Position numbers and translations under genes: made by a program. Shown piece after piece: positions 27,056 through 30,356 of a DNA stretch of 64,000 nt; the stretch's first letter is position 1, and every line of letters begins with the position of its first letter. Below the pieces are notes generated by a model. The model was not told the DNA's origin. It saw only the letters and a program-made list of their open reading frames with translations, and made no database searches. The stretch comes from Escherichia coli. GTDB lineage: Bacteria; Pseudomonadota; Gammaproteobacteria; Enterobacterales; Enterobacteriaceae. The stretch lies in NCBI RefSeq assembly GCF_013315695.1, contig NZ_CP054353.1; one strand, 5' to 3'.

Positions 27056-27426
27056 TAATTTGTCCTTTTCAGTCAGTGCAAAAGTCGAGTAAAAGGCATA
27101 ACCTATCACTGTCATAGGTAAGAGCTTAGATCAGGTGATTGCCCTTTGTTTATGAGGGTGTTGTAATCCATGTCGTTGTTGCATTTGTAAAGGCAACACC
27201 TCAGCCTGCAGGCAGGCGCTGAAGATACCAAAGGGTAGTTCAGATTACACGGTCACCTGGAAAGGGGGCCATTTTACTTTTTATCGCCGCTGGCGGTGCA
27301 AAGTTCACAAAGTTGTCTTACGAAGGTTGTAAGGTAAAACTTATCGATTTGATAATGGAAACGCATTAGCCGAATCGGCAAAAATTGGTTACCTTACATC
27401 TCATCGAAAACACGGAGGAAGTATAG
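27056..27426. promoter_or_regulatory. dsbG/ahpC divergent promoter region (OxyR-regulated by established knowledge; sites not precisely mapped here)
   Basis: Intergenic; ATAG/CTAT-like elements around 27320-27365. The boundaries given are the whole intergenic span, not a mapped site. Confidence 0.45.
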
Positions 27427-27990
27427 ATGTCCTTGATTAACACCAAAATTAAACCTTTTAAAAACCAGGCATTCAAAAACGGCGAATTCATCGAAATCAC
27501 CGAAAAAGATACCGAAGGCCGCTGGAGCGTCTTCTTCTTCTACCCGGCTGACTTTACTTTCGTATGCCCGACCGAACTGGGTGACGTTGCTGACCACTAC
27601 GAAGAACTGCAGAAACTGGGCGTAGACGTATATGCAGTATCTACCGATACTCATTTCACCCACAAAGCATGGCACAGCAGCTCTGAAACCATCGCTAAAA
27701 TCAAATATGCGATGATCGGCGACCCGACTGGCGCCCTGACCCGTAACTTCGACAACATGCGTGAAGATGAAGGTCTGGCTGACCGTGCGACCTTCGTTGT
27801 TGACCCGCAGGGTATCATCCAGGCAATCGAAGTTACCGCTGAAGGCATTGGCCGTGACGCGTCTGACCTGCTGCGTAAAATCAAAGCAGCACAGTACGTA
27901 GCTTCTCACCCAGGTGAAGTTTGCCCGGCTAAATGGAAAGAAGGTGAAGCAACTCTGGCTCCGTCTCTGGACCTGGTTGGTAAAATCTAA
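27427..27990 (+). CDS. ahpC: Alkyl hydroperoxide reductase peroxiredoxin subunit AhpC
   Basis: 187-aa [54 protein letters not shown]... Confidence 0.95.
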
Positions 27991-28010
27991 GTTCCGCAAT
28001 CGCGTAATTA

Positions 28011-28038
28011 ATCGGGTGCTGCGGCACCCGATTTTCTT
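28011..28038 (+). terminator. Intercistronic hairpin plus T-tract between ahpC and ahpF (likely partial terminator/attenuator)
   Basis: atcgggtgc-tgcg-gcacccgat (9-bp stem) followed by tttctt. Confidence 0.55.
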
Positions 28039-28118
28039 CCCCGCACCATGATGCAAGCTGCATCCAGGTAGCCGCAGAGGCCGCTTGCATGATGATGTTT
28101 AAAGCCCAGGAGATAAAC

Positions 28119-29684
28119 ATGCTCGACACAAATATGAAAACTCAACTCAAGGCTTACCTTGAGAAATTGACCAAGCCTGTTGAGTTAATTGCCACGCTGG
28201 ATGACAGCGCTAAATCGGCAGAAATCAAGGAACTGTTGGCTGAAATCGCAGAACTGTCAGACAAAGTCACCTTTAAAGAAGATAACAGCTTGCCGGTGCG
28301 TAAGCCGTCTTTCCTGATCACTAACCCAGGTTCCAACCAGGGGCCACGTTTTGCAGGATCCCCGCTGGGCCACGAGTTCACCTCGCTGGTACTGGCGTTG
28401 CTGTGGACCGGTGGTCATCCGTCGAAAGAAGCGCAGTCACTGCTGGAGCAGATTCGCCATATTGACGGTGATTTTGAATTCGAAACCTATTACTCGCTCT
28501 CTTGCCACAACTGCCCGGACGTGGTGCAGGCGCTGAACCTGATGAGCGTACTGAACCCGCGCATCAAGCACACTGCAATTGACGGCGGCACCTTCCAGAA
28601 CGAAATCACCGATCGCAACGTGATGGGCGTTCCGGCAGTGTTCGTAAACGGGAAAGAGTTTGGTCAGGGCCGCATGACGTTGACTGAAATCGTTGCCAAA
28701 ATTGATACTGGTGCGGAAAAACGTGCGGCAGAAGAGCTGAACAAGCGTGATGCTTATGACGTATTAATCGTTGGTTCCGGCCCGGCGGGTGCAGCGGCAG
28801 CAATTTACTCCGCACGTAAAGGCATCCGTACCGGTCTGATGGGCGAACGTTTTGGTGGTCAGATCCTCGATACCGTTGATATCGAAAACTACATTTCTGT
28901 ACCGAAGACCGAAGGCCAGAAACTGGCAGGTGCGCTGAAAGTTCATGTTGATGAATACGACGTTGATGTGATCGACAGTCAGAGCGCGAGCAAACTGATC
29001 CCGGCAGCGGTTGAAGGCGGCCTGCATCAGATTGAAACAGCTTCTGGCGCGGTACTGAAAGCACGCAGCATTATCGTGGCGACCGGTGCAAAATGGCGCA
29101 ACATGAACGTTCCTGGCGAAGATCAGTATCGCACCAAAGGCGTGACCTACTGCCCGCACTGCGACGGCCCGCTGTTTAAAGGCAAACGCGTAGCGGTTAT
29201 CGGCGGCGGTAACTCCGGCGTGGAAGCGGCAATTGACCTGGCGGGTATCGTTGAGCACGTAACGCTGCTGGAATTTGCGCCAGAAATGAAAGCCGACCAG
29301 GTTCTGCAGGACAAACTGCGCAGCCTGAAAAACGTCGACATTATTCTGAATGCGCAAACCACGGAAGTGAAAGGCGACGGTAGCAAAGTCGTAGGTCTGG
29401 AATATCGCGATCGTGTCAGCGGCGATATTCACAACATCGAACTGGCCGGTATTTTCGTCCAGATTGGTCTGCTGCCGAACACCAACTGGCTGGAAGGCGC
29501 AGTCGAACGTAACCGCATGGGTGAGATTATCATTGATGCGAAATGTGAAACCAACGTCAAAGGCGTGTTCGCAGCGGGTGACTGTACGACGGTTCCTTAC
29601 AAGCAGATCATCATCGCCACTGGCGAAGGTGCCAAAGCCTCTCTGAGTGCTTTTGACTACCTGATTCGCACCAAAACTGCATAA
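28119..29684 (+). CDS. ahpF: Alkyl hydroperoxide reductase flavoprotein subunit AhpF
   Basis: [33 protein letters not shown]..., 521 aa, RBS aggag upstream. The track ORF is extended 10 codons upstream. Confidence 0.93.
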
Positions 29685-29713: not shown

Positions 29714-29746
29714 AGCCGCCGGGGTCAAACCTGGCGGCTTTTTTAT
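29714..29746 (+). terminator. Rho-independent terminator of ahpCF
   Basis: agccgccgg…ccTggcggct stem followed by tttttt. Confidence 0.7.
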
Positions 29747-29804: not shown

Positions 29805-30233
29805 TTAACGCACAACCAGCACCGGCAAATTGGCGTGGCGGATCACGCTCGAGGCGTTAGAACCCAACAGATGAGTTGAAATCGATGGGTTACGCGAACC
29901 AATCACTACTACATCTGCATCAAGTTCTTTCGCTAACTCGTTAACTTCATCCCGCACACTACCAAAACGGACATGTTGCTTAATGCGGGAAGGATCGATG
30001 GTGAAGTGGCTGACCATCGTTTGCAGACGTTCTTCTGCTTCATGTTGCAGATGCTCTTCAAAACGACGTACATCAGCGGCAAAACGGTGCAGGCTCAGGC
30101 TGGCTGACCCCGGTAGTACGTGAAGTAGATGAATAACTCCGTCATCCTGGGCGAGGAATTCAGCGTGGCGAACCGCTTTGTCGCTCAATTCCATTTCGAA
30201 AACATCCACTGGCATGATGATTGTTTTGTACAT
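29805..30233 (-). CDS. uspG: Universal stress protein UspG
   Basis: Start [29 protein letters not shown]…, 142 aa, RBS ggagag upstream. The track ORF is extended 11 codons upstream. Confidence 0.9.
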
Positions 30234-30356
30234 AAGCATTCTCTCCTTGTTTTTGCATGTATACATAACAGCACATTATTGGTTATGAATCTATGATTTG
30301 CGAGGCTGATTTGATCTGAATTTGCTATTGAGCTGGAAAATAAATAAAACCAGGCG

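Follow-up and report, generated by a model that had tools for sequence, protein, structure and literature searches.

The ahpC-ahpF locus

The window (the whole stretch of 64,000 nucleotides of Escherichia coli DNA analysed here, from contig NZ_CP054353.1) carries ahpC and ahpF in tandem, separated by a spacer with two hairpins upstream of the ahpF Shine-Dalgarno sequence (Table 1). The region 27900-28250, whose genes are annotated as ahpC and ahpF, shows 100% identity with O157:H7 and further E. coli strains and occurs in 5422 of 5426 complete genomes of the species. From 28012 through the start of ahpF, the window is identical to K-12. For comparison, we scanned genomes with the N-terminal domain of AhpF, which gave loci from 80 Enterobacteriaceae species. 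In all 80, ahpC is followed by ahpF, with a spacer of 119-377 nt, and in 79 the final ~120 nt could be aligned with the window.

Table 1. Features of the ahpC-ahpF region, in window coordinates
Feature	Position	Strand	Details and source
ahpC CDS	27427..27990	+	187 aa; stop TAA 27988-27990; ORF list and RefSeq annotation, identical E. coli DNA
ahpC-ahpF spacer	27991-28118	+	from the ahpC stop to the ahpF ATG; agrees with the initial annotation
Hairpin 1, probable ahpC terminator stem-loop	28010..28033	+	AAUCGGGUGC-UGCG-GCACCCGAUU; 8-bp core 28012-28019 with 28024-28031
Interrupted U tract UUUUCUU	28032..28038	+	first two U able to pair with A28010 and A28011
Hairpin 2, RNase III substrate	28047..28094	+	lower stem CAU.AUGCAAGC (28047-28058) with GCUUGCAU.AUG (28083-28094)
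Imperfect apical part of hairpin 2	28059-28082	+	fold
Shine-Dalgarno AGGAG of ahpF	28108..28112	+	6 nt 5' of ATG; read from sequence
ahpF CDS	28119..29684	+	start MLDTNMKT; RefSeq annotation of K-12 and others; start kept in 80 loci
Terminator after ahpF, operon end	29714..29739	+	scan: 10 pairs, 8 G-C, tail TTTTTATT; canonical, strong

A purine-rich block at the position of the ahpF Shine-Dalgarno sequence is conserved in the species alignment. The initial annotation had noted that the second hairpin overlaps the start of an extended ORF. That start, at 28089, does fall in the 3' arm of hairpin 2, but it is spurious: in many genera the upstream ATGATGATG that would open this longer ahpF is not in the ahpF frame, and the RefSeq start is MLDTNMK. 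We also rejected a mini-ORF at 28049-28072 (MMQAASR, then a stop), which is without a ribosome-binding site and whose length and sequence are unconserved outside the stem bases, and a third hairpin over the ahpF Shine-Dalgarno sequence (28095-28101 with 28114-28120), which folds at -3.9 kcal/mol (z -0.45) and has a mean z of -0.06 in the 80 species, as expected by chance. A promoter scan of the spacer gave no sigma-70 promoter-like match, and an ahpF promoter within hairpin 2 was discarded on the strength of this empty scan. No family reached threshold in an Rfam search of the spacer; an rncO match at 28003-28031 scored 19.4 bits, below the gathering score of 43, and was taken as chance.

The terminator after ahpF sits between this gene and a convergent usp-family gene at 29805-30266 on the minus strand. 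The assembly of E. coli DH5alpha (NZ_CP045741.1, about 460-560 of our extracted locus) has a gap that takes in the 3' arm of hairpin 1, the rest of the spacer and the very beginning of ahpF, and ahpF is annotated under a different protein accession; this gap may reflect either a genuine deletion or a fault in the assembly.

Hairpin 1 is conserved by covariation

An inverted-repeat search found perfect 10-nt arms at 28010-28019 and 28024-28033, enclosing the loop UGCG and followed by UUCUUCC. The hairpin folds at -18.3 kcal/mol, against -6.15 +/- 2.23 kcal/mol for shuffled sequences (z -5.45; none of 200 shuffles equalled it). The terminator after ahpF, used for comparison, folds at -21.9 kcal/mol with a z of -4.2. 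A 9-bp stem at 28011-28032, followed by tttctt (28033-28038), had already been pointed out in the initial annotation, and it is the same element.

Across the 80 species, the core of hairpin 1 comprises 8 pairs, with 98% of cells paired and compensatory changes in seven of the eight. One pair is C-G 51 times and U-A 26 times, for example, and another is C-G 33 times, U-A 27 times and U-G 16 times. This level of covariation was reached by none of 500 shuffles, and slid controls paired in just 24-46%. In every one of the 80 species the 8-bp core has a folding energy of -10 to -16 kcal/mol, and hairpin 1 is part of the minimum-energy fold of the whole segment in 80/80 Enterobacteriaceae sequences.

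The tail is conserved as well, in composition rather than as an unbroken run. In each of the 80 species, 4-7 of the 9 nt that follow the G+C core are T; the tail is usually interrupted, with a maximum of 3-4 consecutive T in 67 species. The tail in the window, AUUUUCUUC, has 6 T in 9. A simple terminator scan, whose rule asks for 5 T in the 8 bases following the maximal stem, does not list hairpin 1, because just four of the eight bases after the maximal 10-bp stem are T, an outcome that fits a sub-optimal terminator. The length of this stem is itself variable within E. coli. At 28010-28011 the window has AA and K-12 has CT, which in the window adds two basal A-U pairs that engage the first two U of the tract. 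K-12 is without these pairs, so that K-12 data describe the 8-bp version of the stem, and the termination efficiency of the 10-bp allele of the window may differ from that of K-12.

RNA 3' ends after ahpC

Published Term-seq data (Adams et al. 2021, eLife 10:e62438, supplementary file 1) place 3' ends on the plus strand of K-12 at 639668, with 17,950 reads in LB at OD 0.4 and 8,697 reads in M63, and at 639670, with 7,690 reads in LB at OD 2.0. The flanking sequence printed for them is ...CGGGTGCTGCGGCACCCGATTT/TC..., and they are classed as 'orphan' and undiscussed in the text (Adams et al. 2021). By exact-string coordinate mapping these ends, which come from K-12 and not from the present strain, correspond to window positions 28034 and 28036, inside the U tract of hairpin 1. 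The initial annotation had named a lack of 3' ends after this hairpin among the observations that would refute its proposal, and in K-12 such ends are present.

The element after ahpC therefore has the features of an intrinsic terminator: a G+C-rich stem-loop just 3' of the gene, a U-rich tract 3' of the stem that is weaker than canonical, and in vivo 3' ends in that tract, taken from the published K-12 data. Hairpin 1 and its U tract are probably an intrinsic (Rho-independent) terminator of ahpC that is conserved and leaky. The weak terminator proposed in the initial annotation is thus upheld by the covariation in 7/8 pairs, the tail kept in 80/80 species and the position of the K-12 ends. 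Term-seq alone cannot separate termination from exonucleolytic trimming back to a hairpin; we infer that the ends arise by termination and not solely by trimming. The TERMITe and SMRT-Cappable-seq supplements contain no ahpC entry, the main text of Stead 2011 mentions neither ahpC nor ahpF, and our literature search returned no paper with an in vitro termination assay or with a northern blot of E. coli ahpC versus ahpCF.

A separate 3' end was reported at K-12 638796, 149 nt 5' of ahpC (Adams et al. 2021). This position is window 27278 and lies at the end of a match to the Rfam family STnc70, an enterobacterial sRNA, between dsbG and ahpC (27189-27282, plus strand; 42.2 bits, gathering score 40). 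The STnc70 match is much stronger at the Salmonella, Klebsiella and Citrobacter loci.

The lower stem of hairpin 2 is nearly invariant, and the hairpin is cleaved by RNase III

The second hairpin has arms ATGCAAGC (28051-28058) and GCTTGCAT (28083-28090) with exactly 24 nt between them, in agreement with the palindrome at about 28050-28090 with a loop of about 24 nt that had been described in the initial annotation. Its full stem (28047-28094) has arms of 22 nt (28047-28068) and 23 nt (28072-28094), which form 17 pairs, interrupted by three 1x1 mismatches and an internal loop; a G.G mismatch at 28050/28091 is conserved. The fold of -21.0 kcal/mol has a z of -2.35 and was equalled by 3 of 200 shuffles. 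The lower stem appears in the minimum-energy fold of the whole segment in 78/80 Enterobacteriaceae sequences, so both hairpins are recovered by RNA folding, as had been expected.

Conservation of the two stems takes different forms. Where hairpin 1 covaries, the lower stem of hairpin 2 hardly changes at all: among the 80 species, 11 of 15 columns of the 3' arm and 6 of 12 columns of the 5' arm are invariant, far above the four-fold degenerate sites of ahpF, where only 1 of 63 is. The arms of hairpin 2 are constrained far more strongly than synonymous sites. Overall, 86% of cells pair, but the covariation observed is matched by shuffles, and the lower stem never varies on both sides. Because this stem is nearly invariant, covariation is uninformative for hairpin 2 and speaks neither for nor against pairing. 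Where departures occur, only the 5' arm has changed, without compensation: 11 species have C in place of U, and 10 have U or C in place of G. In 3 species a 5'-arm change turns the G.G mismatch into a C-G pair. The extension of the stem varies weakly, and the folded segment is 42-57 nt long across species. Of 5426 E. coli genomes, 5421 have hairpin 2 exactly once (the median is 1 place per genome, and the window has 1), which rules out a dispersed repeat of the REP/ERIC type.

The function documented for this hairpin comes from K-12. Gordon, Cameron and Pfleger (2017, mBio 8:e00128-17) listed an RNase III site, 'Intergenic (ahpC-ahpF)', at K-12 639695, which exact string matching places at window 28061, among the G-C pairs that lie directly above the lower stem. 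The ratio of reads at this position in the rnc- mutant and the wild type was 900 (3,598 vs 4 reads), RNase III cleaved the site in vitro (scored 'Y'), and 5' RACE was used to map it (Gordon et al. 2017). The presence of 3,598 site-spanning reads in the rnc mutant means that read-through transcripts exist. Hairpin 2 also has the double-stranded length of an RNase III substrate, about two helical turns (~20 bp or more), and its cleavage in vivo and in vitro is known from the literature for the identical K-12 sequence. The documented role of hairpin 2 is thus RNase III processing of read-through transcripts and not a read-through switch.

The half-life of ahpC was ~14 min in the wild type and ~6 min in the rnc- mutant, with that of ahpF unchanged, and the authors proposed that ahpC is left with a stabilising 3' hairpin after the cut (Gordon et al. 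2017). In an earlier study, qPCR of an rnc14 strain found ahpF mRNA 7.7-fold and ahpC mRNA 3.3-fold higher, and ahpF was already listed as an RNase III target. For ahpC the two results conflict in sign, with a shorter half-life in rnc- (Gordon et al. 2017) and a higher steady-state level in rnc14, and the mechanism by which RNase III regulates ahpC positively was stated in 2022 as not elucidated (Microorganisms 10:699).

Distribution outside the Enterobacteriaceae

We also recovered 8 loci from outside the Enterobacteriaceae, with AhpF identities of 73-82%. Six of them can be traced to a genus: Pantoea (L085, L092), Proteus (L086, L087), Morganella (L088) and Providencia (L090). All 8 keep the hairpin, almost unchanged in sequence, as AUCGGGUG...CACCCGAU with a U run, which ranges from UUUU to UUUUUUU, and in all of them hairpin 2 is absent and the terminator directly precedes the ribosome-binding site of ahpF. 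Since hairpin 1 is kept where hairpin 2 is missing, it is no mere by-product of RNase III processing. Since these loci retain the terminator and are without hairpin 2, the latter looks like an Enterobacteriaceae-specific insertion 3' of an older terminator, as far as can be judged from this comparison of sequences.

Within the family, Lelliottia nimipressuralis CCUG 25894 (L075, 1071-1200) is the sole one of the 80 species without hairpin 2. It has a long imperfect ERIC-like hairpin at that position, 3' of the kept terminator (GGCGGGTGC...GCACCCGC TTTTTT). The layout is the usual one, with hairpin 1 and hairpin 2, in a second strain of L. nimipressuralis (L047).

A proposed mechanism for unequal expression

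We consider it likely that the spacer is a two-part device, transcriptional and then post-transcriptional, that uncouples ahpC from ahpF within one operon. Most transcripts from the ahpC promoters would end at hairpin 1 and its U tract, giving a monocistronic ahpC mRNA with a stable 3' hairpin. Polymerases that read through would transcribe hairpin 2 about 13 nt further on, and the resulting double-stranded stem of about two turns would be cut by RNase III, splitting the ahpC part from the ahpF part. The upstream fragment would presumably be trimmed back to hairpin 1, which would account for the stabilisation of ahpC mRNA by cleavage, and the downstream fragment would be an ahpF mRNA with a short leader. 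The expected outcome is a large excess of AhpC, a decamer, over AhpF, a dimer. The initial annotation had offered such an excess as the rationale for a weak terminator, and it agrees with the stoichiometry given by Gordon et al. (2017), a decamer against a dimer. The arrangement of terminator and RNase III site presumably sets the AhpC:AhpF ratio.

The near-invariance of the hairpin 2 arms raises a different reading, namely that this hairpin is conserved mainly for a role other than RNase III cleavage, either as a protein-bound inverted repeat in the DNA or as an RNA site at which a protein or sRNA controls the translation or stability of ahpF, with cleavage incidental. RNase III has only weak sequence preferences, and the arms show no compensatory change in 80 species; the 5'-arm changes go uncompensated, and the 3' arm and the bases next to it (GCUUGCAUGAUGA.GU.U) are more constrained than the 5' arm. 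However, both the in vivo depletion that depends on RNase III and the in vitro cleavage map to this hairpin, the variable spacing of the arms (segment of 42-57 nt) is ill-suited to a DNA operator of fixed geometry, no sigma-70 promoter-like match lies in the spacer, and the change of the G.G mismatch to a C-G pair in 3 species suggests that pairing matters. We regard this reading as unlikely.

A related idea, which we hold to be quite unlikely, is that the near-invariant lower stem, added in the Enterobacteriaceae between the older terminator and the ahpF ribosome-binding site, is perhaps something beyond a generic RNase III substrate. If this were true, the cut arms might remain paired as an intermolecular duplex, protecting both the 3' end of ahpC and the monophosphorylated 5' end of ahpF. 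In another version, the stem would be the site of a sequence-specific factor, and stress-modulated RNase III (YmdB, osmotic or cold stress) would tune the AhpC:AhpF ratio.

Hairpin 1 could also be viewed as a barrier to 3' exonucleases and nothing else, in which case all transcripts would be ahpCF, RNase III would cut hairpin 2 and trimming would halt at hairpin 1. The stabilising 3' hairpin proposed by Gordon et al. (2017) is in line with such a barrier, as are the Term-seq ends, which lie just 3-5 nt past the K-12 stem and are compatible with trimming, and the failure of a generic scan to call hairpin 1. A pure barrier needs no T-rich tail, though, and one is kept in 80/80 species; moreover, hairpin and U run persist outside the Enterobacteriaceae with no RNase III hairpin 3' of them, and ahpC remains fairly stable in the rnc mutant, at a half-life of ~6 min. 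On this evidence a barrier without termination is improbable, and we retain the reading of hairpin 1 as a leaky terminator followed by an RNase III site.

The segment upstream of the terminator

The initial annotation had called the arrangement attenuator-like and suggested regulated read-through. The sequence in which the parts of an attenuator would be expected is not conserved. The distance from the ahpC stop to hairpin 1 ranges from ~20 to ~270 nt across species, and the sequence is hypervariable; it is 19 nt in the window (27991-28009) and 135 nt in K-12. With such variability, neither an antiterminator nor a leader peptide is conserved, and the distance from stop to hairpin is not fixed. 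Accordingly, we found no conserved alternative structure 5' of hairpin 1 in the 80 species and no leader ORF with a ribosome-binding site in the spacer of the window, and the hallmarks of an attenuator or riboswitch (conserved upstream structure, leader peptide or ligand domain) are lacking here.

Much of this variation involves small repeats of the ERIC or REP type, which are unrelated from one species to another. E. coli itself is polymorphic in length, the K-12 type having an additional 116 nt (L001 392-507, BW25113) and others an additional 42 nt, with neither in the window. The K-12 insert is a dispersed repeat found at a median of 8 places per E. coli genome. Its core, CGCTCACCCCGGTCACTTACTTGTGTAAGCTCCCGGGGATTCAC, matches the ERIC1R and ERIC2 primers, and we take it to be an ERIC/IRU element. 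REP-like sequences (...GCATCCGGCA..., ...GTAGGCCGGGTAA...) occur just 5' of hairpin 1 in many genera, among them the loci L017, L025, L030, L047 and L048. This short stretch, bounded by the ahpC stop and the terminator, seems to be an insertion hot spot for small repeats.

We give very little credence to a regulated attenuator, in which a signal would switch read-through of hairpin 1 by alternative folding with hairpin 2 or with upstream sequence: the 5' arm of hairpin 1 (28010-28025) could pair in part with the apical 3' side of hairpin 2 (28071-28086; 75% complementarity over 16 nt) and Term-seq counts vary with growth condition, though overall expression varies too, but the complementary segment lies 3' of the terminator and is untranscribed when termination is decided, the pairing is absent from the minimum-energy fold, in which 78/80 species keep both hairpins, the upstream sequence holds ERIC/REP insertions or nothing, the varying distance from the ahpC stop excludes ribosome-coupled control, neither a leader ORF nor an Rfam family was found in the spacer, and species without hairpin 2 retain the terminator. 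The suggestion of regulated read-through is not borne out; termination after ahpC is, we infer, partial and constitutive.

Significance and comparison with known systems

In E. coli, AhpCF is the main scavenger of endogenous hydrogen peroxide, and the amounts required of its two subunits differ widely. The ahpC-ahpF spacer shows how one operon may reach such an unequal ratio, by a leaky terminator followed by an RNase III split of the read-through message. The spacer between rplL and rpoB, in the rplKAJL-rpoBC operon, likewise has a partial terminator ('attenuator') and an RNase III site, which lower expression of the distal genes. The order of leaky terminator and RNase III hairpin is the same at both loci; the genes and sequences are unrelated.

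Ratio-setting terminators inside operons, such as that of sdhCDAB-sucABCD (cited by Conway et al. 2014), likewise place a G+C-rich hairpin and U tract between co-transcribed genes of which the upstream product is required in excess. In contrast to terminators of this type, the ahpC U tract is interrupted (UUUUCUU), and it has no known condition-dependence.

Both elements of the ahpC-ahpF spacer are already in the literature, the RNase III site since 2017 and the 3' end, as an unremarked 'orphan' of Term-seq, since 2021. The K-12 RNase III site of Gordon et al. (2017) is the same locus, identical from 28012 on, with 639695 at 28061. Compared with K-12, the window (O157:H7 type) is without the 116-nt ERIC-containing segment between the ahpC stop and hairpin 1, and its hairpin 1 has two extra basal A-U pairs. 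Gordon et al. (2017) does not describe the terminator or how it covaries, nor in which lineages the hairpin occurs. What is added here is that the probable terminator is old and covaries across the Enterobacterales, and that the RNase III hairpin appears younger and family-specific and is under unusually strong sequence constraint.

The early-mRNA sites of phage T7 and the pflB-pflA site (Gordon et al. 2017) are likewise intercistronic RNase III cuts after which the upstream message keeps a protective 3' hairpin. The T7 hairpin that gives protection is the very one that RNase III has cut, whereas at ahpC-ahpF the protective structure is likely a separate terminator hairpin, 13 nt upstream.
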